Below, piece by piece: positions 3,017 through 59,329 of a stretch of DNA of 64,000 nucleotides (its first letter is position 1; the number at the start of each line of letters is the position of its first letter). The notes under the pieces were generated by a model that saw only the letters and a program-made list of their open reading frames with translations, was not told the DNA's origin and ran no database searches. The stretch lies in contig JAQUSJ010000001.1 of NCBI GenBank assembly GCA_028715175.1, positions 148,356 to 212,355 of the forward strand. Direction: 5' to 3'. Source of the stretch: Candidatus Daviesbacteria bacterium (GTDB taxonomy: Bacteria; Patescibacteriota; Microgenomatia; Daviesbacterales; UBA10151). The position numbers and the translations under genes were made by a program.

Positions 3017-5116
3017 ATGGCAAGAAGAAGATCAATCTATAAATTACCCAAGTTTAGGTTAAAACAGAAAACTATAACTGCTGTTGGTACCCTAATAGCT
3101 TTCAGCTTGAGCGTTTTATCAATTGTGGCACTTTTTACCCATTCTCAAACACTAGTATTTTGGAGAGATTTTCTAAATGAGTATTTAGGTGTAGCAAAAA
3201 TTGCCTCCCCAATCATTTTTTTGCTTTCCGGTTTGGTTCTGACAAAAGCCAAATGGAAAATAGCACAGACTAATGTTCTTTTGGGATTTATTTTACTGGT
3301 TTTATCCAGTGTTTCATTTGTTGCGGCGCTAAATTCTGAAAAAGCGGGTTCGATCGGGCAAACTTTGTGGATACAGCTGTCTTCTTTTGTCACTCCGCTT
3401 GGGGCAGCCACTTTGTTTGTGTTAGTTTTCCTGATTGGTTTGGTTGTACTTTTTAATACTTCCCTGCAGCAAATTTTTGCCGTTTTTGTTTATATTTTTA
3501 ATATCTTGCAAAGACTGTTTAAAGCAATTTTTAACAATCAGCGGACATTTGAAGCAAAACATATTCCGATTAAAGTTTCCGGGGTTGACGAACGCCCCGT
3601 CACAAAACCGCTGGCAATGCAGCAAAAAGAGGCCGTTATTGCTGATGTATTGGTACAAAATGTGGCCGGGCAAAGTAAAATCTGGAAATATCCACCTTTA
3701 AATTTATTATCTGATAAAGTGGGATCGGCCGCTGAAAGAGGTAATGTTAAAGATAATGCTAATATTATCGAAAAAACGCTAGATTCATTTGGGATTCAGG
3801 CAAATGTGGCAGAAGTCAACGGCGGGCCGGCAGTAACACAATATGCGCTGCGGATTTCAGCAGGAACCAAAATTTCGAAGATTGCCAATTTACAGCATGA
3901 TATTGCGCTGTCTCTGGCTACGCCTACCGGTACTGTCAGAATTGAGGCGCCTATTCCCGGAAAATCCCTGGTTGGTATTGAGGTACCAAACCGCTCTCTT
4001 GAGATAGTCGGCTTGAAACAAATTTTAGCATCAGAAGAGATGCAGAAGCATAAATCAAGACTGGCTGTTGCACTGGGACGGGATACTTCTTCAAAGCCAA
4101 TGATTGTAGATATAGATAAGATGCCTCACGTTCTGATTGCCGGTACAACCGGTTCAGGTAAATCGGTGTTAATTAATGCAGTTATTGCTTCCTTGCTTTT
4201 CAGGAATTCACCGGACACCTTGAAGATGATTTTGATTGATCCAAAAAGGGTAGAACTGACAAACTACAATGGTATTCCTCATCTTCTAACACCGGTTATT
4301 ACGGAACCGGAAAAGATTTTATCTTCCTTGAAGTGGGCAATGGCCGAAATGGATAGACGCTATAAATTATTCCAGTCAGTCGGAGTGCGTAATATCACGG
4401 GTTATAATGAAATGTCCGGTTTTCAGGCCCTGCCGTATATTGTCATTATTGTTGACGAGTTGGCCGATCTTATGATGTTTGCGCCGGTTGAGATTGAGGA
4501 TGCAATTACCAGGATTGCCCAACTAGCTAGGGCAACAGGAATTCATCTGGTGGTGGCAACCCAGCGGCCTTCTGTTGACGTTATTACAGGTTTAATCAAA
4601 GCCAATATCCCCTGCCGGATTGCATTTAACGTATCTTCCATGATTGACTCCCGGGTTATTTTAGACGGACCCGGGGCGGAGAAATTGCTGGGACGGGGAG
4701 ATATGTTGTTTTTGCCTCCGGATGCTTCAAAACCGATTCGTATTCAAGGAGTGTTTGTTCAGGATAATGAGATCGAGAGTTTGATTAAATATCTTAAGAA
4801 TACCGGCATTGCGCCGGAATATACTACAGAGGTAACGGAGATGCCGCTGGGCAGGTGGGGCGGAAGAAATGGTAATGGAGGCGAAAAAGACCAGTTATTT
4901 GAGGAGGCAGTTAAAACTATTTGCCAATATGATCGGGCTTCGGCATCGCTGCTTCAAAGAAGGCTTAAGGTCGGTTATGCCAGAGCTGCCAGGATTTTAG
5001 ATGAGCTGGAGGCAGCAGGGATTGTTGGCCCGGGTGAAGGTTCAAAGCCCAGGGATGTGCTGGTCCGTAATGCTGAGGAATATTTTGCAGCTCAACAAAG
5101 TGCGAGCGGAAATTAA
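3017..5116 (+). CDS. ftsK: DNA translocase FtsK/SpoIIIE
   Basis: N-terminal TM helices, Walker A AGTTGSGKS, motor domain, C-terminal gamma winged helix (LLQRRLKVGYARAARILDELE). Confidence 0.9.
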   Translation: MARRRSIYKLPKFRLKQKTITAVGTLIAFSLSVLSIVALFTHSQTLVFWRDFLNEYLGVAKIASPIIFLLSGLVLTKAKWKIAQTNVLLGFILLVLSSVSFVAALNSEKAGSIGQTLWIQLSSFVTPLGAATLFVLVFLIGLVVLFNTSLQQIFAVFVYIFNILQRLFKAIFNNQRTFEAKHIPIKVSGVDERPVTKPLAMQQKEAVIADVLVQNVAGQSKIWKYPPLNLLSDKVGSAAERGNVKDNANIIEKTLDSFGIQANVAEVNGGPAVTQYALRISAGTKISKIANLQHDIALSLATPTGTVRIEAPIPGKSLVGIEVPNRSLEIVGLKQILASEEMQKHKSRLAVALGRDTSSKPMIVDIDKMPHVLIAGTTGSGKSVLINAVIASLLFRNSPDTLKMILIDPKRVELTNYNGIPHLLTPVITEPEKILSSLKWAMAEMDRRYKLFQSVGVRNITGYNEMSGFQALPYIVIIVDELADLMMFAPVEIEDAITRIAQLARATGIHLVVATQRPSVDVITGLIKANIPCRIAFNVSSMIDSRVILDGPGAEKLLGRGDMLFLPPDASKPIRIQGVFVQDNEIESLIKYLKNTGIAPEYTTEVTEMPLGRWGGRNGNGGEKDQLFEEAVKTICQYDRASASLLQRRLKVGYARAARILDELEAAGIVGPGEGSKPRDVLVRNAEEYFAAQQSASGN

Positions 5117-5288
5117 ATTCAGTATTTAAAAATCAATTTATTCACGATCGTGAACATTTTGAATCCTTAACCATTAACTTCCTTAACTATTAACTTTAGA
5201 ATACTGAGGTGTAACTACAATTTCACCCCCGAGGTGGAAGCATGGAAGCAGGAATAATGGCAGATTATGAATTTGGTACAATTGAGCA

Positions 5289-5876
5289 ATGAAATCTCAA
5301 AATCTAACCTTCAAAGAAACAGATCAGATTATAAAACTTTTAAAATCTGGCAAAGTTGGCGTGATGCCGACGGATACTATTTATGGAATTGTCGGGTTGG
5401 CGCTTAACCCAAAAACTGTTGAGGAAATTTATTCTTTGCGGAAGAGAACGACCGATAAGCCAATGATCATATTGATTTCCTCGATAGAAGATTTGAGAAA
5501 ATTTGATATAAAGATCACAAAAGCGCAAACTGATTTTTTAAAAAAGATTTGGCCCAATCCGGTCAGTGTGATTTTGCCATGCCTCCAAGATAAATTTTCT
5601 TATCTTCATAGAGATAAAAAGAGTTTGGCATTTAGGATACCAAAAAACGAAATACTACAGGGAATTTTAAAAAAAGTCGGTCCTTTAGTTGCACCTAGTA
5701 CAAACTTTGAAGATAGTAAACCAGCCGAAACTATTCATAAGGCAAAACAATATTTTGGGGATAAGGTATCTTTTTATGTAGACGGAGGAAAATTAAAGTC
5801 TAAACCTTCGACAATCGTTAGACTATACAAGGATGGCACGCGGATAGTTTTAAGAGAAGGTACTTACAGGGTATAA
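5289..5876 (+). CDS. tsaC: L-threonylcarbamoyladenylate synthase TsaC/YrdC family
   Basis: PTDTIYGIVG...KPMIILI YrdC/Sua5 signature. Confidence 0.8.
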   Translation: MKSQNLTFKETDQIIKLLKSGKVGVMPTDTIYGIVGLALNPKTVEEIYSLRKRTTDKPMIILISSIEDLRKFDIKITKAQTDFLKKIWPNPVSVILPCLQDKFSYLHRDKKSLAFRIPKNEILQGILKKVGPLVAPSTNFEDSKPAETIHKAKQYFGDKVSFYVDGGKLKSKPSTIVRLYKDGTRIVLREGTYRV

Positions 5877-5886
5877 TATCGGTTAC

Positions 5887-6525
5887 ATGAGAACTGCTGG
5901 ACAGATTTTAAAAGAAGAAAGAGAAAGAAAATTTTATACTCTGGACGAGATTGAGAAAGCTACAAAGATTAGAAAAGAACTGTTAGAGGCGTTAGAAGCA
6001 GGTCAGTATTCAAAACTTCCTCCGCAAACTTTTGTTCAGGGTTTTATTAAAAATTACGGTAAATTCCTGGGACTTAGTCAGGATAAATTATTGGCAATAT
6101 ATAGGAGAGAGTTTTCTGAATCGAAACATCCTCCCCGGATTTTGGATTCATTTAAAGAGCCTATTGAAAAGAAAAAATTTAAGCTTACACCGGCAAGAGC
6201 TTTGGGAAGCGTGGTTTTAGGTCTTATTATTATTTTTTTTGTCTATCTTTGGATCCAATATAGATTTTTGGTAGGAGGACCATTTTTGGAGGTAAGCCAA
6301 CCGGTTAACCAGTTTAATACAACTTCTCCGGCAGTGCAGGTTACGGGTAGAACGGATCCGGAGGCGAAAGTAAGCATTAACAATCAAGAAGTTGGGGTAG
6401 ATACCTCCGGAAGATTCTCGCAAGAGATTAAGCTGACTGATAATATAAGCAATATAGAAATTAGCGCTAAATCAAAAAGCGGCCAAGTCACAAAAATCGA
6501 AAGAACGGTTTTTTTGAAAAAATGA
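5887..6525 (+). CDS. RodZ-like HTH (XRE-type) membrane protein
   Basis: N-terminal HTH as in the RodZ family (TLDEIEKATKIRKELLEALEAG...FVQGFIKNY) followed by a TM helix. Confidence 0.55.
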   Translation: MRTAGQILKEERERKFYTLDEIEKATKIRKELLEALEAGQYSKLPPQTFVQGFIKNYGKFLGLSQDKLLAIYRREFSESKHPPRILDSFKEPIEKKKFKLTPARALGSVVLGLIIIFFVYLWIQYRFLVGGPFLEVSQPVNQFNTTSPAVQVTGRTDPEAKVSINNQEVGVDTSGRFSQEIKLTDNISNIEISAKSKSGQVTKIERTVFLKK

Positions 6526-6624
6526 CCCCGATTTATTGTGGGTTATCCTGAGCAATTAGCGACCGCGTGCCGCCATAGCTTTAGCGGTGGCGCAAGGATC
6601 TATTATTATGTTAAACTTAAGCTC

Positions 6625-6915
6625 ATGGATTATTTACAAATTGCTTTAATTTTTTTGATTTTGCTACTGTCCATTTTCCTGGCCATTACCGGTATTCAGG
6701 TATTTTTTATTTTACGGGATCTGAAGAAAGCTCTGGATAAATTTAATGCAATTTTGCAAACAGGTGAGGACTTGGCGGAAGATATTGAAAGGCCGATGGC
6801 AGCTGCCAGCAGTCTGGCAACTAGCACAGGAGCAGCGGTTGTTTCAGGTGCAGCTAAGGTGCTGGAAAAAATCATCAAACCCAAACCAAAAAGATTTTAC
6901 AAAAAGGTTCTTTAA
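6625..6915 (+). CDS. Small membrane protein, DUF948-like (start moved to the internal ATG at 6625)
   Basis: TM helix ALIFLILLLSIFLAITGIQVFFIL followed by a coiled/Ala-rich tail. The upstream part of the listed ORF lacks coding character. Confidence 0.4.
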   Translation: MDYLQIALIFLILLLSIFLAITGIQVFFILRDLKKALDKFNAILQTGEDLAEDIERPMAAASSLATSTGAAVVSGAAKVLEKIIKPKPKRFYKKVL

Positions 6916-6919
6916 TATT

Positions 6920-7141
6920 TTATATAAATTTTTCCAGCTCTTTTCTGGTCATGCCAGCCTGCTTAAGGATGCTAGTGAATGTACCAATAGCTATTTCTTT
7001 ATGATTTGGAACAATGACAGTAAAATGCTTATTTCCTTGTCTTTTAAAGAGTTTAATATGGCTTCCTCTTTGACTGATAACGCAAAATCCTGCCCTTTGC
7101 AAGGCTGAAAGTATGATGCGGGCAGAGTATAGCTTAGGCAT
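6920..7141 (-). CDS. hicA: Type II toxin HicA (mRNA interferase, YcfA-like)
   Basis: 73 aa. The motif GSHIKLFKRQGNKHFTVIVPNHKEIAIGTFTSILKQAGMT matches HicA family topology. Confidence 0.8.
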   Translation of the reverse strand: MPKLYSARIILSALQRAGFCVISQRGSHIKLFKRQGNKHFTVIVPNHKEIAIGTFTSILKQAGMTRKELEKFI

Positions 7142-7349
7142 TAATTTGGATGGATAAATCCTGAAGTCTTGGTTTACTTACTGGTGTTAGTTCAATATTA
7201 GATTGGTCTTCAAAGTATAATTCAAGAGCCTCTTTTAAATTGTCCAAAGCTTCTGTGTGGGTTTTGCCTTGACTAGTTACTTCTATCTCTAGAGCTTTGG
7301 CAACATACCATTTATCTTCTTTCCATACTACAGAATGAATTCTTTTCAT
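7134..7349 (-). CDS. hicB: Antitoxin HicB (UPF0150)
   Basis: Start moved to the internal Met (MKRIHSVVWKEDKWYVAKALEIEVTSQGKTHTEALDNLKEALELYFED). Overlaps hicA by 8 nt. Confidence 0.7.
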   Translation of the reverse strand: MKRIHSVVWKEDKWYVAKALEIEVTSQGKTHTEALDNLKEALELYFEDQSNIELTPVSKPRLQDLSIQINA

Positions 7350-7421
7350 AGGTGTATTATACCATTTACTTGATAGAGGTTTATGCTTCGTTTGGAGGAT
7401 AATAAGTGTTAAAATACCAAC

Positions 7422-9305
7422 ATGACATCTCAAGAATTAAGAGCAAAATTTTTAAAATTTTTTGAAAAGAATGATCACAAAATTATTCCTTCTGCCTCTT
7501 TGGTACCCTCGGAAGAAGAACAGCTTGAGGGTAAGGAAAAAGTTTTATTTACCAGCGCCGGAATGCAACCCTTGATCCCCTATCTTATAGGACAAAAAGA
7601 GCCTCCTAGTAAAAGATTGGCCAATGTCCAAAAGTGCTTAAGGACAGACGATATTGAAAAAGTGGGAGATGCAGTTCATCATACTTTTTTTGAGATGTTA
7701 GGTAATTGGTCCATAGGTGATTATTGGAAAGAAGAAGCAATCAGATTGTCTTTTGAATTTCTAACACAAGAATTAGGAATACCTATAGAAAAACTTGCTA
7801 TTTCTGTTTTCGCTGGTGATGAGGATGCGCCAAAAGACGAGGAGTCGGCTCAAATATGGAAGAGTTTAGGGATTTCTGAGAAAAGAATATTTTACTTTGG
7901 TAAAAATCATAATTGGTGGCCTACAGGTGAAAAATCAGGTCTGTGCGGTCCTGATACAGAAATGTTTTATTGGATAGGTGGTGGTAAACCAGAAGGTAAA
8001 CCTAATGAAGATTCACGATGGGTGGAAATTTGGAATGATGTTTTCATGCAGTTTAATAGAAAAGAAGACGGTACTTTAGAAGATTTGCCTCAAAAAAATG
8101 TGGATACAGGAATGGGTTTAGAAAGAATACTGGCTGTATTAAATGGAAAAGAAAGCGACTATGAAACAGATTTATTTTTACCAATTATAAAGGTAGCGGA
8201 AGAACAACTATTAATAAAATTTAAATATGGAGAGGACAAACGAGTAGATCGCGCTTTTAAAATAATAGCTGATCATATAAAGGCAGTAGTTTTTTTGATT
8301 AATGAAGATATAGAACCTAGCAATAAAGATCGAGGATATATCTTAAGAAGATTGATAAGGCGAACGCTGACGCAAAACCATTTATGGGGTGATATAAATT
8401 CTTCTATATCGTTGTTAGTCAATAGTGTCATTGAGATTTATAAGAATAAATATAGTGATCTTGCCAGGAATACTCAACACATAAAAGATGTTATCAAACA
8501 AGAAGAAATAGGTGCGAATAAAGCAGTGAATGCTGCAATGACTGTGTGGAGAAAGTGGGTTGAAGAAGAACATAGAGGAGGTTTTGGAAGTCAGCCATTT
8601 GGAACGGCGACTTTTGGTTCTGGTGGGTACCTTCCTCCTGTATCGGCAGAAAAGATGTTTGATCTTTATCAATCATATGGATTACATCCTGAAATCATGG
8701 AAGAAATTACTCAAGGACAATTTGATAGGACAGGTTTCGACAAGCTATTTTTTGAACATCAAAAAAGATCTAGAGCTGGATTAATACAAAAATTCGCTGG
8801 GGGATTAGCAGGACATTCAGAGACGGAGATCAAATATCACACTGCCACTCATCTTTTGCATCAGGCCTTGCGGGATGTTTTGGGGCCGGAGGTTTTTCAA
8901 AAAGGTTCCAATATCACAGCTGAAAGGCTCAGATTTGATTTTTCCTATCCAGAGAAATTAACAGATGAACAAATTAAAAAAGTTGAAGATTTAGTTAACC
9001 AAAAAATAGCAGAAGATTTGGAAGTTACATCAGAAGTAATGAGTAAAGAAGAAGCATTAAAATCCGGAGCTTTGGGATTTTTCAATGAGAAATACGGGGA
9101 CAAGGTTAAAGTTTACACAATAGGTAGCCCTTCGACCTTTCGGCCTCGCTCAGGGCTGGCAAGCTCAAAATCTCCCTTTTCAAGGGAGATTTGCGGTGGG
9201 CCGCATGTTGAGCGTACCGGAGTAATAGGAAAAATTCAGATAATAAAAGAAGAAGCAGTATCTTCCGGCATACGTCGAATTAGGGCGGAAATTGTGTTAA
9301 GATAA
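7422..9305 (+). CDS. alaS: Alanine--tRNA ligase, short form (catalytic, tRNA-binding and editing domains; no C-Ala domain)
   Basis: N-terminal class II AlaRS motifs. Editing-domain metal motifs HTATHLLHQAL and CGGPHV. 627 aa. Confidence 0.9.
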   Translation: MTSQELRAKFLKFFEKNDHKIIPSASLVPSEEEQLEGKEKVLFTSAGMQPLIPYLIGQKEPPSKRLANVQKCLRTDDIEKVGDAVHHTFFEMLGNWSIGDYWKEEAIRLSFEFLTQELGIPIEKLAISVFAGDEDAPKDEESAQIWKSLGISEKRIFYFGKNHNWWPTGEKSGLCGPDTEMFYWIGGGKPEGKPNEDSRWVEIWNDVFMQFNRKEDGTLEDLPQKNVDTGMGLERILAVLNGKESDYETDLFLPIIKVAEEQLLIKFKYGEDKRVDRAFKIIADHIKAVVFLINEDIEPSNKDRGYILRRLIRRTLTQNHLWGDINSSISLLVNSVIEIYKNKYSDLARNTQHIKDVIKQEEIGANKAVNAAMTVWRKWVEEEHRGGFGSQPFGTATFGSGGYLPPVSAEKMFDLYQSYGLHPEIMEEITQGQFDRTGFDKLFFEHQKRSRAGLIQKFAGGLAGHSETEIKYHTATHLLHQALRDVLGPEVFQKGSNITAERLRFDFSYPEKLTDEQIKKVEDLVNQKIAEDLEVTSEVMSKEEALKSGALGFFNEKYGDKVKVYTIGSPSTFRPRSGLASSKSPFSREICGGPHVERTGVIGKIQIIKEEAVSSGIRRIRAEIVLR

Positions 9306-9311
9306 TTTAAA

Positions 9312-11522
9312 ATGAGCTTTCTAAGTAACCTCGCTAATCTATTACCAATTGGTAAAAAAGAAGAAACGAAGGAATATTTTTTTGCGCTTAATATCGGAAC
9401 GGAAACTTTGACGGCCGCTCTTTGGGTTATTGAAGGTTTAAACTTAAAAATTTTAGAAACAGCTTCAGATAATTACTCTTCGAATGATGATATTGCGACT
9501 GTTACGGATAAACTTTTGGATGCTGTCTTAGGCTTAAAAGAGGTTGAACCCCAAAAAATTCTCTTTGGTGTACCAAATTCCTGGATTGCGGATGAAAATC
9601 TAAAAGACGAGTATTTAAAGATTCTTAAAAGTTTAGTGAAAGAATTGGAACTGGTTCCAATGGCATACGTCGCTACAAGTCATGCCTTAATTCATTTCTT
9701 GGAGAAACAAGAAGGTGTTCCGACAACTGCCATACTGGTTGGTTTTGAGAAGCAACATCTAACCGTAATTGTGGTTCGGGCAGGGAAACTTGATGGTGTA
9801 AGAGTTATAGCGAGAGGAGAAACTGCCGGTTCGGATATAGAAAAAGCGCTACTTGCATTCACGGATGTGGAGACCTTACCTTCTAAGATTTTAATTTATG
9901 GGGAGCAAACTGAAAATTTAAAAAGCCAACTATTGTCTTTTTCCTGGATGTCAAAACTTTCTTTCCTGCATCTTCCCAAAATAGATGTTTTGGGAGACGA
10001 TGCTCCGATTAAAAGTGTTTGTTTGGCCGGAGGATCGGAGATAAACAGTGATATTAAATTTACCGAGCAGCATATTCAGAAGTCCCCTGTCAAATCGACC
10101 TTGATTGATACCGGTGAGGAAGAGATCAAGAACAAGATTGAGGTGGATGATTCTGCTGCCCAAGAAAATTTCGGATTTGTTGTCGGGGATGTTTCGAATC
10201 AGAAAAAATCAGCCCCGATTGAATCTGGGTTAAAGAGTCAAGAGACCGGTGAGTCAGAAGAACTTGTGGTTTCGCAAGAGCATGCTTTAGAAGTTGAAGA
10301 TTTTGAGCAAGAAATGCCCGTAACAAGCGAATCTCCAAAAGAAATACATAAAGAAAAATTTAATCTCAAACGATTTATCCCAAAGCAAAATTTTACAACT
10401 ATGACTATAATTATCGGGGTAATTCTGGCACTGGTTTTGATTGGGGGCGCTTATGTTTTTCTACCAAAAGCAAACATGAAGATTTTTGTAGAACCGAAGA
10501 TTGTAGAACGGGATACCCAAGTTGTGGCTGATCCAAATCAAAAAACCGTTAACGAAGACGGGAAAATCATTCCGGGACAGATTATCGAGACGGAGGTATC
10601 CGGATCGGCAAAAGACAGTGCTTCCGGTAAAAGACAGATTGGCGATCCGGCAAAAGGGACGATTGTGCTTTACAATAAAACTTTAGATTCCATCTCTTTG
10701 AGTAAGGGAACACAAGTTAGTAAAGGGAGTATAAAATTTACACTGGATACCAGTGTAACAATTGCCTCATCGTCCGCCAGTGATACCGGAATTGCTTTTG
10801 GTAAAGTTAATACTACAGTTACAGCAGTAGCAGTCGGAGCTGACGGAAATATTTCATCAGGTGCGGATATAACGGTTGCGGGATATTCATCGGATAAATT
10901 AACGGCAAAATCAGAAGGTAATTTTTCCGGAGGAACCTCTAAGGATGTAACTGTTGTTTCAAGTGAGGATACTCAGCGACTTCTGGCCAAGTTATCTTCG
11001 GATTTAAGGCAACAAGCTCAACAGAAATTACAGGAGAAATATCCTAACAAGAAAATTCTGGAAGAAGCGCTGTCGGAACAAATTACCAGTAAAAGCTATA
11101 ACAAAAATGTTAATGATCAGGCAAGTGAATTTTCGCTAAATATGACCATTCGTTATAAAGGTACGGCGTTTGATGATAATGATCTTAAATCAATTGTTTC
11201 AAAGTTAGTAAATATGCAAGTGCCTGATGGTTTTAAGCTTGATATTTCGGCAACCGAAACCCAGGCAGATGTTTCTAAGCTGGAAAAGGACGGGAAGTTG
11301 ATATTTTTAGCAAGGTTTAAGGCAAAATTAATACCCAAGATCGATATGGATAAAATTAAAGATAAGATTAAATTTAAGAGTTACTCTGAAGCTACGAACA
11401 TTATTAAAGAAATGGAGAATGTTTTGGGTTCCGAAATTAATATAACTCCTGCTTTACCGAAAGCGATTCAACGACTGCCAATACTTTCAAAAAATATCAC
11501 GATTGAGGTGGGACTTAAATGA
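9312..11522 (+). CDS. Membrane protein with an N-terminal FtsA/PilM-like actin-fold domain, one TM helix and a large extracytoplasmic C-terminal domain
   Basis: FALNIGTETLTAALWVIEG actin-fold start. TM helix IIIGVILALVLIGGAYVFL at about aa 365. Ser/Thr/Gly-rich external region. Confidence 0.5.
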   Translation: MSFLSNLANLLPIGKKEETKEYFFALNIGTETLTAALWVIEGLNLKILETASDNYSSNDDIATVTDKLLDAVLGLKEVEPQKILFGVPNSWIADENLKDEYLKILKSLVKELELVPMAYVATSHALIHFLEKQEGVPTTAILVGFEKQHLTVIVVRAGKLDGVRVIARGETAGSDIEKALLAFTDVETLPSKILIYGEQTENLKSQLLSFSWMSKLSFLHLPKIDVLGDDAPIKSVCLAGGSEINSDIKFTEQHIQKSPVKSTLIDTGEEEIKNKIEVDDSAAQENFGFVVGDVSNQKKSAPIESGLKSQETGESEELVVSQEHALEVEDFEQEMPVTSESPKEIHKEKFNLKRFIPKQNFTTMTIIIGVILALVLIGGAYVFLPKANMKIFVEPKIVERDTQVVADPNQKTVNEDGKIIPGQIIETEVSGSAKDSASGKRQIGDPAKGTIVLYNKTLDSISLSKGTQVSKGSIKFTLDTSVTIASSSASDTGIAFGKVNTTVTAVAVGADGNISSGADITVAGYSSDKLTAKSEGNFSGGTSKDVTVVSSEDTQRLLAKLSSDLRQQAQQKLQEKYPNKKILEEALSEQITSKSYNKNVNDQASEFSLNMTIRYKGTAFDDNDLKSIVSKLVNMQVPDGFKLDISATETQADVSKLEKDGKLIFLARFKAKLIPKIDMDKIKDKIKFKSYSEATNIIKEMENVLGSEINITPALPKAIQRLPILSKNITIEVGLK

Positions 11523-12175
11523 TTGCTACCCTCCGCCGGTCCCAGGGGAAACTCATTTCAAGTCTATTTTTATCAGTCGGAATCTTTCTTTTGATACAAG
11601 TTATTGCACCACTTGTATCGTTTGAGGTATGGGCGATTGGACAGAAAATAAATAGCCGGACTTTGGTTAGTCCTGTTAAATCAAGCGAGCAAATTCCAGG
11701 TGTTTCAGTGCAAGATCGGAATAATTTTCCTGCTTTTATTTCTTCTTTGAAGAGGGAGACTCAACCCAATTATGATCGGTTTAGCTTGTCTATTCCAAAA
11801 TTAAAGATCGAAAGACAAGATGTTTTAGTTGATACGAATTATCTCTCGGAGAACCTGGCTCATCTGTCGGGATCTGCTTTGCCGGGCGAGAAAGGTAATG
11901 TATTTATTTCCGGCCATTCTGCACTAAGTCAATTTTCCGTTATAAAAAGTGTCCCTTTTTCAAAACTACCTGAATTAAAAAAGGGCGATCAAATTATTGT
12001 TGAAACTTCCGGGTCAGAGTTTATCTATGAAGTTTCCGATTTTAAAGTTGTTGATCCGACAGATTTATCCGTTGTAGAAGCACCGGAAACTCAAGGTAGA
12101 TACATTTCTTTGATGACTTGTGTACCACCAGGTTTAAACCTAAAGCGACTGGTTGTTTTAGGGAAAATGATATAA
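11519..12175 (+). CDS. Sortase family transpeptidase
   Basis: N-terminal TM anchor, catalytic His (FISGHSA), Cys (LMTCVPPG) and Arg (KRLVV). Confidence 0.75.
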   Translation: MIATLRRSQGKLISSLFLSVGIFLLIQVIAPLVSFEVWAIGQKINSRTLVSPVKSSEQIPGVSVQDRNNFPAFISSLKRETQPNYDRFSLSIPKLKIERQDVLVDTNYLSENLAHLSGSALPGEKGNVFISGHSALSQFSVIKSVPFSKLPELKKGDQIIVETSGSEFIYEVSDFKVVDPTDLSVVEAPETQGRYISLMTCVPPGLNLKRLVVLGKMI

Positions 12176-12285
12176 TGGAGTAGCTCGTTACGTACAAAAT
12201 ATGCTAACTTGCTGACTCGTCGATGCACAAAGCCAGCTTACTTGCGACTTCGCTGCTCCTTATAGATTTATAATCACTAGCAGAA

Positions 12286-12310
12286 AACCCCGCTTTCTTA
12301 AAGCGGGGAT
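12286..12310 (+). terminator. Rho-independent terminator-like hairpin (ccccgctttcttaaagcgggg) after the sortase gene
   Basis: Perfect 8-bp GC stem with a 5-nt loop; the downstream T tract is weak. Confidence 0.4.
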
Positions 12311-12430
12311 GAATGCTAAAGTGATTACAGTCTTCCGCGGAAAGTTCGGTGGAATAAGCAAGGTAGGGTTTTCTGCTGTTCTTGTAAACTTGAAAGGAGA
12401 AAACCGCGGATTTTCAGTCCGCGGAAGTTT

Positions 12431-26790: not shown

Positions 26791-27975
26791 ATGGCTGAAC
26801 AGAAAAAATTTGATAGAAGCAAACCGCATGTAAATGTTGGAACCATGGGTCATGTTGACCATGGTAAAACAACTTTAACTGCTGCAATCACCAAAGTCTT
26901 GGCCGGCAAAGGTATGGCTGAAGAGCGCAGTGTTGATCAAATTGATAACGCTCCGGAAGAAAAAGCCCGTGGCATTACCATTAATATTTCTCACCAAGAG
27001 TATGAAACCGAAAAAAGGCATTATGCCCACATTGATATGCCAGGGCATGCAGATTACATCAAAAACATGATTACCGGCGCCGCCCAAACAGATGGCGCCA
27101 TTTTGGTAGTTTCTGCACCGGATGGCCCAATGCCTCAAACCAGAGAACATCTTCTATTGGCTCGCCAGGTAGGAGTTCCGGCAATTGTAGTTTATTTAAA
27201 TAAGGTAGATATGGTAGACGATCCTGAACTTTTGGATTTGGTAGAAGAAGAAGTTCGTGATCTTTTGAAGAAATATGAATATGATCCGCAGTCTCCTATA
27301 ATCCGCGGCAGCGCCAAAAAGGCTTTGGAAGGTGATGCTGAGGCAGTAAAATCTATTGAAGATTTAATGACTAAAGTTGACGAGTGGATTCCGACTCCTG
27401 TCAGGGATACGGATAAGCCGTTCCTGATGGCGGTTGAGGATGTTTTCTCAATTAAAGGCAGAGGTACGGTAGTAACCGGAAGAATTGAAAGAGGCAAGGT
27501 TAAAGTTAATGAAGAAATCGAAATCGTTGGCATCAAGCCCACAAAGAAAAGCGTTGTCACAGGAATTGAGATGTTCCATAAAATGCTGGATGAAGGTCAA
27601 GCGGGCGACAATGCCGGAATTCTGCTTCGAGGTATTGAAAAAGACGATGTTGAAAGAGGTCAAGTTTTGGCCAAACCAGGCTCAATTACCCCGCATTCCG
27701 AATTCCAGGCTGAAGTTTATATTTTGAGCAAAGAAGAAGGCGGAAGACACACTCCTTTTTTCAAAGGCTACAGACCGCAATTCTATATTAGAACTACAGA
27801 TGTGACCGGTGAAGTTACTTTACCGGAAGGAGTAGAAATGGCGATGCCAGGTGATACAGTCAATGTTACCGGTAAACTTATTACACCTGTTGCTATGGAA
27901 GAAGGTCTTCGTTTTGCTGTCAGAGAAGGCGGAAAAACGGTCGGAGCCGGGGTTATTACCAAAATAATCGCTTAA
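26791..27975 (+). CDS. tuf: Elongation factor Tu
   Basis: [39 protein letters not shown]; 394 aa. Confidence 0.95.
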
Positions 27976-27983
27976 GCTTATTT

Positions 27984-28039
27984 GTCATTCTGAACGTAGT
28001 GAAGAATCTAATTGGATTTTTCGTTTTACTCAGGATGAC
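27984..28039. repeat. Dual-hairpin palindromic repeat element (GTCATTC...hairpin...GAATC / GATT...hairpin...GATGAC), copy 1
   Basis: Two about 25-nt units in inverted orientation (gtcattctgaacgtagtgaagaatc / gatttttcgttttactcaggatgac). A near-identical element is at 50127-50182 and a related one at 31218-31288. Confidence 0.6.
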
Positions 28040-28088
28040 AATTTAGTATAATGCACATTGAAAGGGAAATCCCTAAAGGGATTATAAT

Positions 28089-28397
28089 ATGCCAAGAGGA
28101 CGAATCAGAGTAAAACTGAAGAGTTACGATCATCGGGTATTAGATAATACCTGTGAATCCCTTTTGGATACAGCCCTTAGAACCGGTGCCAAAATAGTCG
28201 GGCCAATCCTCCTTCCTACAAAAACTGAGCGCATTACGGTTTTAACTTCCCCCCATACAGACAAAGACTCAAGAGAAGCTTTTGAAATAAAAACCCACAA
28301 AAGAATGATTGATATTGTGGAACCTACCCAAAAAACCATTGATTCTCTCATGCATCTTGAAATCCCAGCCGGGGTTGATATTGAAGTAAAGATGTAG
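28089..28397 (+). CDS. rpsJ: 30S ribosomal protein S10
   Basis: IRVKLKSYDHRVLD...S10 family; 102 aa. Confidence 0.9.
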   Translation: MPRGRIRVKLKSYDHRVLDNTCESLLDTALRTGAKIVGPILLPTKTERITVLTSPHTDKDSREAFEIKTHKRMIDIVEPTQKTIDSLMHLEIPAGVDIEVKM

Positions 28398-29207: not shown

Positions 29208-29999
29208 ATGATAAGTACACTTTTAGGTATAAAAAAGGAAATGACGAGTGTTTATGATTCCCGCGGAAGAAGGGTGGGAGCTACCGTTGTACAAATTTCA
29301 CCTAATTTGGTGACTCAAATAAAAACTACCGATGGTAAAGATGGTTACAGCGCAGTCCAGCTAGGTTATGGAACCAAAAAATCAGTCAAAAAACCTCAGC
29401 TTGGACACGGGAAAAAAGCTGGAATTGAAACTCCGATTAGATGGTTTAGGGAAGTTAAAATCAAGGAAGAAAATCCCTCGACTACGCTCGGGACTATAGA
29501 GCCTGGAACAGAAATTAAACTGGACCAGGTTTTTTCAATAGGAGATGCAGTAAAAGCGACAGGTATTTCTAAAGGTAAAGGTTTTCAAGGTGGAGTGAGG
29601 CGTCACGGCTTTCATGGCGGACCAAAGACTCACGGTCAATCAGATAGGTTGCGAGCTCCGGGCGCAATTGGTTCAGGTACTACCCCGGGAAGAGTTTATA
29701 AGGGCAAAAAGATGGCAGGTCATATGGGTAGTAGCGGAGCAAGTACCAAGAATTTAGAAGTCGTAGGGTTAAATAAAAATGATAATTTATTGATTATTAA
29801 AGGCGCAATTCCGGGGCCGGTGAATAATTTAGTTTTAATTACAAAATTAGGAAGAGTAAAAGGTTACACTCCGCCACCGGAAGAAAAACCATCGGAAGAA
29901 GAATTAAGCGAAGAGAAGCAAGAATCAAGCAAAGAAACAGAAGAGCCAAAGACTGAAGAAGCAAAGGTGGAACAAAAAGGAGAAGAAAATGCCAGTTAA
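29208..29999 (+). CDS. rplC: 50S ribosomal protein L3 with an acidic C-terminal extension
   Basis: L3 core (GKGFQGGVRRHGF...). About 45-aa Glu/Lys/Ser-rich tail. Confidence 0.9.
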   Translation: MISTLLGIKKEMTSVYDSRGRRVGATVVQISPNLVTQIKTTDGKDGYSAVQLGYGTKKSVKKPQLGHGKKAGIETPIRWFREVKIKEENPSTTLGTIEPGTEIKLDQVFSIGDAVKATGISKGKGFQGGVRRHGFHGGPKTHGQSDRLRAPGAIGSGTTPGRVYKGKKMAGHMGSSGASTKNLEVVGLNKNDNLLIIKGAIPGPVNNLVLITKLGRVKGYTPPPEEKPSEEELSEEKQESSKETEEPKTEEAKVEQKGEENAS

Positions 30000-30780
30000 A
30001 AAAGTGATAAGTAAGAAGAGAAAAGTAACAAGTGACAAGAAACAAGTGACAAGAAAAAAAGCTGGAAGTGCTTCTCTATCTGTTCCAGTTTATTCTCTAG
30101 CTGGTAGAGTTGCTGGAACTTTGTCATTACCAAAGGAAATTTTTGGGGTTAAAGTTAATAAAACATTGCTGTCACAAGCAGCTAGAGTTTATTTAACAAA
30201 CAAGAAGACCTTATTAGGTTCTACCAAGACCCGGGGTGAGATTGAGGGTTCAACTGCCAAGATTTATAGGCAAAAAGGCACCGGCAGGGCTAGACACGGC
30301 GCTATCCGCGCGCCGATATTTGTCGGGGGCGGTATTACTTTTGGTCCCAAGTCCCGCAAGGTACGGCTGGATTTACCAAAGAAGATGAAAAAAGCAGCTT
30401 TATTGTCTGCTCTTTCAGCTAAGGCGGCTGATAAGAATGTAATAGGGTTAGCTGGAGTTGAAAAAGCATCAGGTAAGACAAAAGAGTTATCTAAAGTTTT
30501 AAATAAAATTACTGGAGAAAATAAAGGCATGAAAAGTGTTTTGATTGTGACTGAGGGAAAAGCAGATAATATGATTAGAGCGGTCAGGAATATTCCAGGG
30601 GTTAGTATTTTGTCTACAAATTTGATTAATGCTTACGAAGTTTTAAGACACGACTTATTAATTTTGAACAAAGAAGCGGTCAATGTCATTCTGGGGAGTA
30701 AAACGACACCAGAATCTGGTAAGAAAGATTCTGGACGCGCTCTGCTTGCCAGAATGACAAAGAAAGGGAAGAAAAAATGA
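29989..30780 (+). CDS. rplD: 50S ribosomal protein L4 with basic N- and C-terminal extensions
   Basis: L4 core (KGTGRARHGAIRAPIFVGGG); 263 aa. Confidence 0.85.
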   Translation: MPVKKVISKKRKVTSDKKQVTRKKAGSASLSVPVYSLAGRVAGTLSLPKEIFGVKVNKTLLSQAARVYLTNKKTLLGSTKTRGEIEGSTAKIYRQKGTGRARHGAIRAPIFVGGGITFGPKSRKVRLDLPKKMKKAALLSALSAKAADKNVIGLAGVEKASGKTKELSKVLNKITGENKGMKSVLIVTEGKADNMIRAVRNIPGVSILSTNLINAYEVLRHDLLILNKEAVNVILGSKTTPESGKKDSGRALLARMTKKGKKK

Positions 30781-48844: not shown

Positions 48845-48915
48845 ATAGATATTGTCGGGGAGGGGAGAATCGAACTCCCGATGCCGCACCCCCAGCGCGG
48901 CGTGTTGCCACTATA
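48845..48915 (-). tRNA. tRNA-Pro (anticodon GGG), no encoded CCA
   Basis: Reverse complement folds as a cloverleaf. Acceptor CGGGGAG/CUCCCCG, anticodon stem CCGCG/UGCGG with loop CUGGGGG (U33, GGG, G37), T arm GGGAG-UUCGAUU-CUCCC, discriminator A. Confidence 0.75.
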
Positions 48916-49059
48916 CTACTCCCCGCCTTCGCCAAGGCTTCGGCGGGCAAGCCCGTTTTTTGCCTTAGACTTATGGTATTTTATCAGGTTAAAGGCCAAT
49001 ACTCTATATAATCATTTTGGGGGATTGATATTTGGGAAATATTTGGTAATCTTGAACAT

Positions 49060-50121: not shown

Positions 50122-50126
50122 CAAAT

Positions 50127-50182
50127 GTCATTCTGAACGAAGTGAAGAATCTAATTAGATCTTTCGTTTTACTCAGGATGAC
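50127..50182. repeat. Dual-hairpin palindromic repeat element, copy 3 (near-identical to 27984-28039)
   Basis: gtcattctgaacgaagtgaagaatc ... gatctttcgttttactcaggatgac. It abuts the recX start codon and accounts for the spurious MKNLIRSFVLLRMTI extension. Confidence 0.6.
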
Positions 50183-50186
50183 AATT

Positions 50187-50849
50187 ATGAAAATAACTCA
50201 AGTAGAACCTCAAAAGAAGAATCCGCATAGATTTAACATATTCATAGATGGAGAGTTTGCTTTTGGGGCAGACGAAGATTTGGTGGTTAACAGAAGATTG
50301 GTGGTTGGAAAAGAACTGACCACATCCGATGTGGAAAAGCTGCTATTTGAGGCAGAGGTGGGAAAACTAATGGAGCGGATGTATAGATGGTTTAGTTTGA
50401 GGCAACATTCAGAAAAAGAAGTCAGAGATTATTTTAAAATTAAGAATCAACAATCAAAAATCAAGGGTAAGGAGCAAATAAGTCAGTTAACAATGGATGC
50501 TTTGGTGGAAACTTTGAAGAAAAAAGGCATGATAAATGATCTGGAATTTGCCAAAGCCTGGGTGGAGGCAAGAAGAAAAAGTAAGAATTTAGGAATAAGA
50601 GCTTTAAGAATGGAACTTTATAAAAAGGGAATTGATAAGGAAATTATTGAGGAGGTATTGAGTGAGCCCTTCGACTTCGCTCAGGGCGAGGAAGAATTAG
50701 CAAAGCAAGCTCTTGAAAAGAAAATGAGAGTTTGGAAAAACTTAGACCATTTGGAATTTAACAAAAAGGCCTATGAATTTTTAGCAAGAAAAGGTTTTGA
50801 GTATGAGATAATTAAAGAGACAATTGAAAACTTGGCGGGAAAAGAGTAA
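50187..50849 (+). CDS. recX: Regulatory protein RecX
   Basis: Start moved to MKITQ after the repeat. Three-helix repeat RecX-like sequence (HRFNIFIDGEFAFG...); recA-recX synteny. Confidence 0.75.
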   Translation: MKITQVEPQKKNPHRFNIFIDGEFAFGADEDLVVNRRLVVGKELTTSDVEKLLFEAEVGKLMERMYRWFSLRQHSEKEVRDYFKIKNQQSKIKGKEQISQLTMDALVETLKKKGMINDLEFAKAWVEARRKSKNLGIRALRMELYKKGIDKEIIEEVLSEPFDFAQGEEELAKQALEKKMRVWKNLDHLEFNKKAYEFLARKGFEYEIIKETIENLAGKE

Positions 50850-50964
50850 AATATATTTGGAGAATCAGATAGAGTGAGTTTATGATGATGAAAATAATTC
50901 TCGACAATTTAATACTCCCTCTAAACTTCATTTAACGAAGTCTTTTTCTGATCCTCCAAAAAAT

Positions 50965-57054: not shown

Positions 57055-57080
57055 AAACTCATTATATGGTTTTGAAGAAG

Positions 57081-58040
<960 letters not shown>

Positions 58041-59029: not shown

Positions 59030-59286
59030 ACGCCTAGGAAGAAGGATGATCGGTCGCCTTAGGCGACAGGAAAGTCCAGACAGCATAAAGCAGGGTGGTC
59101 CGATGTAAATCGGACACGGGTAACCGCTAGTTAGAGCAACAGTGACGAACCGAGGTCATGCTCGGGTGAAACGTGGCAATCCTCCCCGCTGCAATCCTAG
59201 AACCGACAGAGTTGCTTGCTCAATTGTTGAAATCAGGAGCATTAGATAAATGATCGTCTAAAAACAGAATCTGGCTTACTAGCTTC
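59030..59286 (+). ncRNA. rnpB: RNase P RNA (compact bacterial type)
   Basis: P1 gccuaggaag / cuuccuaggc (59032-59041 / 59273-59282). P4 strands GGAAAGUCCAGAC and ACAGAAUCUGGCUUA match the universal P4 consensus. AGCAGGGUGG and extended -10 tgTATAAT lie just upstream. Confidence 0.7.
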
Positions 59287-59329
59287 CTAGGCATTTTTCT
59301 TCTATTTTTCTCATTGTATACTTATATAA

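Follow-up and report, generated by a model that had tools for sequence, protein, structure and literature searches.

Short dispersed palindromic repeats are the closest described counterparts of the element analysed here, a GC-rich module of about 20-24 nucleotides (nt) that lies in frame inside alaS (alanine--tRNA ligase) and recX of Candidatus Daviesbacteria (Microgenomates, Candidate Phyla Radiation (CPR)). Both genes belong to a 64-kb stretch of the 743,708-bp contig JAQUSJ010000001.1, which we refer to as the window and whose positions are used throughout; compared loci and proteins carry L and P numbers, respectively. The small dispersed repeats (SDRs) of Nostoc and other cyanobacteria, reportedly described by Elhai and colleagues in 2008, are said to measure 21-27 nt, to be nested in themselves, to lie in tandem heptamers and to form hairpins with compensatory changes. 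Mobile GC clusters of yeast and other fungal mitochondria are short GC-rich palindromes of an AT-rich genome, inserted in coding and rRNA genes that they do not destroy; they differ from the module in being organellar, in their unrelated sequence and in their unit of usually 30-50 nt.

Larger palindromic repeats are also found within genes. Rickettsia palindromic elements (RPEs) reside in frame in unrelated housekeeping genes and are compatible with protein function (PMC10969869, PMC3733652); they are either about 100-150 bp long (RPE-1) or dimers of repetitive extragenic palindromes (REPs) that encode 20-30 residues, and are known from Rickettsia only (PMC10969869). Di Nocera et al. (2013, PMC3733652) reported intragenic REPs in known genes, many of them replication and repair genes, and classed RPE-4 and RPE-6 with the (C/T)GTC-tagged REPs. 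These CGTC/TGTC REPs combine an unpaired CGTC, TGTC or CCTC tag with a stem of 8-9 bp that starts with AT, a loop of 4-5 nt and a tail close to CCA, and occur mostly as head-to-head dimers (PMC3733652). The inverted REP doublets called REPINs are mobilised by REP-associated tyrosine transposases (RAYTs), their families being lineage-specific with one RAYT gene per genome (Bertels & Rainey 2011, PMC3116915).

The repeats of the window resemble RPEs in residing in frame in functional genes, namely alaS, recX and the tail of rplD. The analogy with RPEs drawn in a preliminary description of this DNA is apt in a further sense, since RPE-4 and RPE-6 are filed with the (C/T)GTC REPs, whose head is shared by a second set of elements in the window, the GTCAT palindromes. 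The module itself differs from RPEs in its unit of 20-24 nt (7-8 residues), its CPR host and its presence in many phyla, and from REPINs in that the alaS and recX copies are singlets. We file it as a further case of the known very small dispersed palindromic repeats that reside in frame, neither RPE nor tagged REP. Unusually, it resides in essential genes of a CPR organism, has a very small unit, nests within itself and shows an exact 20-mer that recurs across phyla. Our preferred reading, to which we assign a probability of roughly 0.7, is that the module is a REP/SDR-like dispersed repeat of very small size, which protein loops tolerate and which is probably selfish and without a dedicated protein function.

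One module in two genes

In alaS the module occupies 9126-9156 and reads AGCCCTTCGAC-CTTTCGGCC-TCGCTCAGGGC, while in recX it occupies 50665-50687 and reads AGCCCTTCGAC-T-TCGCTCAGGGC. The two copies have 22 of 23 nt in common, the alaS copy carrying 8 extra nt, and the tract is in frame in both genes; the translations were checked and confirm the preservation of frame that had been proposed. Both half-sites are complete at only these two places in the window; that the module belongs to a large family is shown from other genomes. The similarity, already picked out in the preliminary description, stands: with up to three mismatches allowed, the 23-mer found no match in 100 dinucleotide-preserving shuffles of the window.

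That there is no element at all, the residues being ancestral, the similarity accidental or the tract an artefact of assembly, would be compatible with the finding of only two copies in 64 kb and with the identical frame of every AlaRS (alanyl-tRNA synthetase) insert. This explanation is already contradicted by the shuffles, by an orthologous locus that lacks the tract (L124), by alignment with a close relative (L121, GCA_028712705.1), and by the spread of the exact 20-mer, which is present in at least 120 genomes, cultured isolates among them. Several independent projects, moreover, produced assemblies with the module at the same site, and we consider its absence as a real element barely credible.

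Nested modules in the alaS editing domain

The alaS gene (7422-9305, + strand) encodes a product of 627 amino acids, matched by the Pfam families tRNA-synt_2c and tRNA_SAD and without a C-Ala domain, that is 100% identical to an alanine--tRNA ligase recorded for a Candidatus Daviesbacteria bacterium (P0001). An in-frame insert of 48 nt at 9129-9176 (+), corresponding to residues 570-585 (PSTFRPRSGLASSKSP), sits between the strand KVKVYTI and the motif FSREICGGPHV of the editing domain, directly before the latter. Four orthologous alaS loci have one gene order (FtsK-Sua5-HTH-x-alaS-large ORF-sortase-ruvX, where HTH is helix-turn-helix and ORF open reading frame), and among the syntenic loci the insert measures 0, 24, 33 or 48 nt at one codon boundary, after GGN GAY. 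At L124 (protein P0009) there is none, GGG GAT being followed directly by TTT TCA; L123 has 24 nt (CCT TCG ACA AGC TCA GGG CCT CCT), as does L121 (CCT TCG ACA GGC TCA GGG TCT CCC), and L122 has a 33-nt version. The simple 24-nt module of the close relatives begins CCCTTCGACAAGCTCAGGG. The lineage-specific, in-frame insertion of about 16 residues previously proposed before FSREICGGPHV is borne out by the insert-free orthologue with the same gene order.

The alaS copy had been taken for a single module with an internal expansion of 8-9 nt. Window and L121 DNA are 92% identical over 4401-8191 and 8799-12308, and the alaS copy of the window differs from that of L121 by one exact additional block of 24 nt, CCTTTCGGCCTCGCTCAGGGCTGG, located between CCCTTCGA and CAAGCTCA of an older module. 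As this block is itself a variant of the module, the supposed expansion is instead a second module nested in the first. The outer, older module has its 5' half CCCTTCGA at 9128-9135 (+), which aligns with CCCTTCGA of L121, L123 and L122, and its partly decayed 3' half CAAGCTCAaaaTCTCCC at 9160-9176 (+), which aligns with CAGGCTCAGGGTCTCCC in L121 and CAAGCTCAGGGCCTCCT in L123; the inner, younger module is centred in it at 9136-9159 (+), opposite a 24-nt gap in L121. The alignment indicates that the inner module was gained after the split from an L121-type relative, at 92% DNA identity.

This nested layout, A1(A2 B2)B1, is found in the window, in two distant CPR AlaRS genes (L209 and L210) and at other loci. 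At the site identical to that in the window, the distant AlaRS gene L211 carries a simple module (TCT TCG GCA GGC TCA GGA CAA GCT), while L209 and L210 carry nested modules that add 21 and 24 nt, respectively, and whose inner copies are read in other frames (LRQAQGK, ARSADAQDK). In a neighbour-joining tree of the AlaRS C-terminal domain (154 columns, no support values), which is weak for a mosaic gene and in which events were left uncounted, the insert-free P0009, 80% identical in that domain, is placed inside the insert-bearing clade. Insert-free sisters of module-bearing AlaRS are found elsewhere in the tree as well (P0075/P0080, P0112/P0093, P0064/P0068), which implies either repeated gains or repeated precise losses.

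A whole-protein tree for counting gains was discarded because of the mosaic structure of the gene. The segment 8192-8798 (codons ~257-459) cannot be aligned between the window and L121, although its flanks are 92% identical in DNA, and protein identity is 30% over residues 300-450 against 97% over residues 1-150. The segment resembles P0002 and P0003 instead, implying intragenic recombination.

In the AlphaFold model (mean predicted local distance difference test, pLDDT, of 87), residues 568-586 form a coil between strands 561-567 and 587-590, with a pLDDT of 49 for residues 571-580 and below 50 for 577-582. This suggests that a beta-hairpin turn just ahead of the zinc-binding Cys-x3-His (CxxxH) motif has been extended into a surface loop. 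The zinc role of this motif is established for the tRNA_SAD domain. A PDB sequence search matched only archaeal AlaRS, whose local architecture is different, and this left no solved structure on which to locate the insert. Among the Daviesbacteria-like AlaRS listed, many (P0002, P0003, P0005 and others) carry a different, conserved insert of 18 residues at the same turn, PxYxLDPxAKDQRDRGGY, which has no module-derived look; the presence of this second, module-unlike insert suggests that the turn is a general insertion hot spot.

The alaS stretch folds as two hairpins, one with the stem AGCCCT/AGGGCT around the module and the other, AAATCTCCCTT-TTC-AAGGGAGATTT, at 9168-9192 (+), where 9168-9178 pairs with 9182-9192. 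A downstream hairpin formed partly from native codons had been described before; it measures 11 bp, its left arm being the end of the insert and its right arm the native codons for S-R-E-I. A shorter form is seen in L121, and the hairpin is absent in L122, L123 and L124. Folding is more stable than in shuffled sequences both for 77 nt of DNA (z = -3.5) and for 101 nt of RNA (z = -2.5).

Such folding would be expected if the inserts were kept for a function, either as a longer editing loop that tunes tRNA(Ala) or Ser/Gly-tRNA editing, or as a pair of mRNA hairpins (9126-9157 and 9168-9192) that slows the ribosome, with a pause before the zinc-binding motif is made. The turn also carries insertions of 5-25 residues in most CPR lineages, the conserved PxYxLDPxAKDQRDRGGY included. 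On the other hand, the module-derived inserts vary in length and sequence among close relatives, one of which has none, the model shows the loop as disordered, L122 and L123 lack the second hairpin, and module DNA occurs in unrelated proteins and in three reading frames. Retention for function is therefore an improbable explanation.

Occupation of a hypervariable linker in recX

The recX gene (50187-50851, +) encodes 220 amino acids, 100% identical to a RecX family protein (P0121), with the Pfam domains RecX_N and HTH1-3. Its module copy, AGCCCTTCGACTTCGCTCAGGGC (50665-50687, +), lies in the linker that precedes the last RecX HTH repeat, where it is read as (E)PFDFAQG. Among the 120 homologues listed, the segment between ...EIIEEV and SEEELAKQALEKK varies freely but retains about 9-10 residues. 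In the DNA of 39 loci this linker consists mostly of about four tandem heptanucleotides (4 x 7; ~30 nt, in frame), with a unit that differs by lineage (GTCGTCA, GTCATCA, AGGGTAC, ATGGACA or AGAGTCN). The heptamer tract occurs without the module in L128, L139, L141 and others. As a side observation, the tract appears in Daviesbacteria as a case of concerted evolution of a microsatellite inside a conserved gene, and a similar RVESQES-type tract is present in one ribosomal protein L4 tail (P0301).

The sequence GAGCCCTTCGACTTCGCTCAGGG, read PFDFAQG, is found in the linker of the window and of one other lineage (L127, L134, L138, L160). L125 carries GTCCTTCGACTTCGCTCAGGACAAG, offset by 11 nt and read LRLRSGQ, and L126, L140 and L153 carry the L125-type version with a 9-nt central expansion. 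The two frames and two offsets argue for at least two independent arrivals. Additional in-frame copies are located at two other RecX positions (L161, L207) and at the RecA C-terminus (L127 lineage). Compared with the commonest state, the linker of the window shows a net gain of only one codon (+3 nt). The notion of recX as a second net insertion was not upheld for this hypervariable linker of near-constant length, and from the compared linkers the module appears to occupy or replace the linker rather than to be simply inserted into it.

A hairpin family found in many phyla

The unit is about 20-24 nt long and has two boxes, box A with the sequence (C)CCTTCGAC and box B with GCTCAGGG(C), on either side of a short variable centre; written as a single-stranded oligonucleotide, the module is GCCCTGAGCGAAGTCGAAGGGC. 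On the opposite strand its core is GAGCGAAGTCGA, a constant core, GAGCG-N-AG-Y(C)GA, being closed by a short stem of variable sequence. Complementary stems around this core include CCCT/AGGG, GGGCT/AGCCC, GTTTC/GAAAC, GTGCT/AGCAC, ATTCT/AGAAT and ATTCC/GGAAT, a set that was ascertained on one variant and is qualitative evidence. That the stems vary in sequence yet stay complementary points to selection for a hairpin with a constant centre.

We searched a species-representative genome set and viral contigs for the exact 20-mer CCCTTCGACTTCGCTCAGGG. It was found in at least 120 genome stretches from many phyla, with unrelated flanks; the hosts include Acidobacteriota, sphingomonads, Bacteroidota, Chloroflexota, Cyanobacteria, Nitrospirales and CPR, and among cultured genera Sphingomonas, Sphingobium, Flavobacterium and Cysteiniphilum. 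The exact 20-mer is also present in 44 viral contigs, and the variant CCCTTCGACAAGCTCAGGG (...GACAAGCTCAGGG) in at least 120. Conservation does not extend beyond the 20-mer on its 5' side and reaches about 5 nt past it on the 3' side (commonly CAGGC). Local contexts range from an inverted partner opposite (sphingomonads) to a position inside GTCAT...ATGAC (several genomes) or between inverted flanks (some Acidobacteriota). In a Flavobacterium metagenome-assembled genome (L014), two matches to Flavo-1 RNA (RF01705), at 13-106 and 2799-2891, span 93-94 nt against the 76 positions of the model, and each holds the exact 20-mer, consistent with an insert in a loop.

The 20-mer is open in five of its six reading frames. 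Pfam-confirmed in-frame copies were found in CPR genes for a ComM/Mg-chelatase and a leucyl-tRNA synthetase (LeuRS) of Saccharibacteria and an ATP-dependent DNA ligase of Curtissbacteria, and elsewhere in HflX (Nitrospirales, reverse orientation), a pyrroloquinoline quinone (PQQ) dehydrogenase, a major facilitator superfamily (MFS) transporter and an M20 peptidase; the RecA C-terminus and three more sites in RecX add to these. In-frame palindromic elements had been described as not expected here, a view that does not survive, since the 20-mer is found across many phyla and other CPR genes hold it in frame. A further case is provided by a Saccharibacteria contig (CAYPMM010000002.1, ~870-990 reverse; L075), where two diverged alleles of the leuS 5' end flank a 10-N scaffold gap and differ by an exact 24-mer, CCCTTCGACTTCGCTCAGGGTAAA, present in one and absent in the other. 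The LeuRS of this contig also contains DPSTGSGRG and PFDKLRA.

The module shares several properties with the SDRs as these are said to be. Unit gains of 24 nt (window relative to L121), 24 nt (L075 leuS), 24 nt (L123 relative to L124; L210) and 21 nt (L209) are discrete, have sharp borders and fall within the reported SDR size of 21-27 nt. Copies lie inside copies (window alaS, L209, L210) and within heptamer tracts (the recX linker and several cross-phylum flanks), the hairpin shows compensatory changes, and neither repeat has a known transposase. In contrast, SDRs are reported from cyanobacteria, whereas the 20-mer of the module is identical across many phyla and CPR, and residence in frame in essential genes is prominent for the module. 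As for the tagged REPs (PMC3733652), the hosts of the module, which include recX, recA, comM and a DNA ligase, are like those of intragenic REPs, but the alaS and recX module, (A)GCCCT...AGGGC(T), lacks the tag and the AT at the start of the stem. The CGTC-1 and CGTC-3 examples seen in the supplement of PMC3733652 encode other peptides (VIPAKAGI, VMAGLDPAIH), and a search there for module peptides gave no match. Literature searches with the nucleotide and peptide strings of the module matched unrelated primers and peptides only, and searches on CPR together with palindromic in-frame insertions found nothing specific. Sequence motifs were the only ground on which rRNA, tRNA, tmRNA, RNase P RNA and a hammerhead core were rejected as sources of the module.

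Arrival and persistence of copies

In the window and 259 kb of CPR loci taken together, the module was matched 25 times, every time on the gene strand; these matches represent an estimated 7-8 or more independent sites. Stop codons cannot explain this bias, since two of the three reverse frames are open. Because the genes run with the GC skew, the bias may stem from replication, with its single-stranded lagging-strand template, or from transcription. It also fits the idea that REPINs are mobile as single-stranded DNA.

According to our preferred reading of a dispersed, probably selfish repeat, copies have landed inside genes in Daviesbacteria and other CPR bacteria, and persist where the added length is divisible by three and the site, be it a loop, a linker or a terminus, is permissive. 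The beta-hairpin turn of the alaS editing domain received a first 24-nt copy, whose middle was later entered by a second 24-nt copy; in recX the copy occupies the hypervariable inter-repeat linker. The copies would be neutral or near-neutral passengers, translated as flexible loops rich in Pro, Ser, Thr and Gly. They would probably spread as single-stranded, strand-specific units, either through an HUH/RAYT-like enzyme acting in trans or through template switching between copies. Both the near-neutrality of the copies and strand-specific copying on single-stranded DNA are what we infer from the observations above.

Several observations weigh against this reading. Only two copies are present within the 64-kb window. 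The AlaRS-site module is always in one frame (PST..SG) and occurs in scattered clades, so it could represent one old insertion spread by recombination instead of repeated hits, which is conceivable because the gene is a mosaic. The net +3 nt in recX agrees better with replacement or gene conversion than with simple insertion. By nearest-neighbour energies, one module by itself makes a weak hairpin (about -3 kcal/mol, z of -0.8 to -1.4), and the recX copy alone forms no significantly stable hairpin (z ~ -0.15). Targeting of hairpin loops rests on nested copies only, and nested AABB clusters, such as those of L249, L268 and L274, do not outnumber tandem ABAB arrangements. The alaS and leuS junctions show no evident target-site duplication; with this and its unit of 20-24 nt, the module falls outside the miniature inverted-repeat transposable elements (size of 70-300 bp, terminal inverted repeats of 15-30 bp, target-site duplication). 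Finally, no mobilising enzyme turned up, although no search aimed at one was made. Hairpin loops as primary targets were considered separately and are unsupported, two empty sites being without significant fold (z = -0.2 and -1.2).

A serious alternative, especially for recX, is that no dedicated enzyme takes part and the copies are short templated patches left by replication template switching or gene conversion between GC-rich quasi-palindromes, the element being no transposon but a by-product of host replication and repair. In recX the module replaces a tract of almost equal length. The linker and many module flanks are tandem heptamers or short repeats, which points to slippage-prone DNA; the 120 nt around the 20-mer show a modest excess of short tandem repeats (22 of 114, against 50 of 570 control positions; p = 0.002 with a crude detector). 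In alaS, the left arm of the 9168-9192 hairpin is an inverted copy of the native right arm, as correction of a quasi-palindrome would yield, and the failure of a transposase to turn up, in an analysis that made no enzyme search, is in line with this mechanism. Taken alone, however, template switching leaves unexplained the identity of the 20-mer, with sharp borders and unrelated flanks across phyla, as well as the discrete 24-nt gains and the 25:0 strand bias, and we regard this alternative as unlikely.

A bolder version of the dispersed repeat, which we offer tentatively and think rather doubtful, would be a pan-bacterial mobile unit of ~21-24 nt, with a core recognised in trans by cross-phylum machinery, possibly phage-carried, and copied strand-specifically into single-stranded DNA. 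If this were true, DNA mobility would extend below the sizes of known transposable elements and provide a steady source of protein loops; the targets of the trans-acting machinery would include module copies, short tandem repeats and essential genes of minimal CPR genomes.

Essential conserved genes of reduced CPR genomes (those for aminoacyl-tRNA synthetases, RecX, RecA and L4) take up tiny GC-rich repeats in frame, and repeats, not adaptation, may account for part of the 'CPR-specific insertions' in proteins. The recurrent peptides encoded by the module (PSTSLRA, PFDFAQG, LRLRSGQ, ALSEVEG) can mislead homology searches, gene calling and marker-gene alignment. An exact 20-mer across phylum boundaries is unusual for REP-like elements, and makes the question of movement testable by comparative or population data.

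GTCAT palindromes and the L4 tail

Three GTCAT palindromes are present in the window. The first, a head-to-head dimer (family D1, palindrome I5; DNA z = -3.3), fills the recA-recX spacer at 50126-50186 and is 95% identical to the second, at 27983-28043 (DNA z = -4.6), which lies between an ORF ending at 27975 (putative tuf) and an ORF at 28089 (putative rpsJ). At the recA-recX junction of L125-L128 the palindrome is absent. The third, palindrome I6 at 30684-30759 (+; DNA z = -6.1), shares its GTCATTCTG ends with the other two, has a different interior and is translated as the C-terminal tail of ribosomal protein L4 (VILGSKTTPESGKKDSGRALLARMT...).

The arms of the elements at 27983-28043 and 50126-50186 carry CTGAACG(A/T)AGTGAAG; allowing for a gap of 1 nt, this is the module in reverse complement (CTGAGCGAAGT-C-GAAG in the module, CTGAACGAAGT-GAAG in the GTCAT arm). 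The likeness between the module and the GTCAT core in reverse complement, first pointed out in the preliminary description, is thus real, and the degenerate core has 7 matches against 1.3 expected. Judging from these letters, the intergenic palindromes appear to be built from units related to the module, with only the core in common. Like the tagged REPs, all three elements combine an unpaired tag with an AT stem start (TGTC-ATTCTG... at 27983, 50126 and 30684), and GTCAT elements are head-to-head dimers, as is typical of that class. In stem, loop and tail they correspond to it only loosely: the stem ATTCTGAAC/GTGAAGAAT reaches 9 bp only with two G.A mismatches, and the tail is CTA, not CCA. 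As inverted, hairpin-forming doublets, the three also resemble REPINs.

The rplD ORF reads through the element at 30684-30759, resulting in a 31-residue C-terminal tail, and its stop overlaps the start of the next gene (ATGA). A VILG...ARMT tail is present in 8 of the 120 L4 homologues listed, most others ending ...EKLSKPxxKEQK; several other Daviesbacteria L4 proteins thus carry this element-encoded tail, in one of them (P0246) with a longer, expanded interior. No Rfam family was detected at the module or the GTCAT elements at either gathering or permissive thresholds.

Other features of the window

The window has a G+C content of ~31-42% and a GC skew that is positive throughout, with nearly all long ORFs on the + strand. 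Its only Rfam matches are an RNase P RNA (59034-59294) and one tRNA (48855-48925, minus strand).

A degenerate module copy had been suggested near 12250. What matches there is a run of 10 nt only, and the 255-nt spacer around it has a nearly identical counterpart in a relative; the site was rejected as a module. This spacer (12176-12430) separates a sortase-like gene from ruvX and contains GC-rich hairpins; it is nearly identical in L121 over the ~130 nt that L121 holds, and absent in L123, where ruvX starts within a few bases. It matches no Rfam family and could be an unrecognised RNA or an inserted element.

Three further tracts are recorded as minor observations. The GC-rich hairpin CCCGCCTTCGCCAAGGCTTCGGCGGGCAAGCCC at 48926-48956 adjoins the tRNA gene and has the flavour of the module's own repeat family (CTTCG twice, GGGCAAGC). 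A second GC-rich hairpin, at 57639-57675 (ACCTCGGA...TCCGAGGT around CCCTTCGGG), is in frame within the ORF at 57066-58040 and is a possible further insertion. Lastly, ccctcgactacgctcgggact at 29475-29495 (PSTTLGT; a ccctcgactacgctcggga tract) resembles a decayed module in the alaS frame, and the ORF that holds it, at 29208-29999, is a putative ribosomal protein L3 gene by its sequence motifs.

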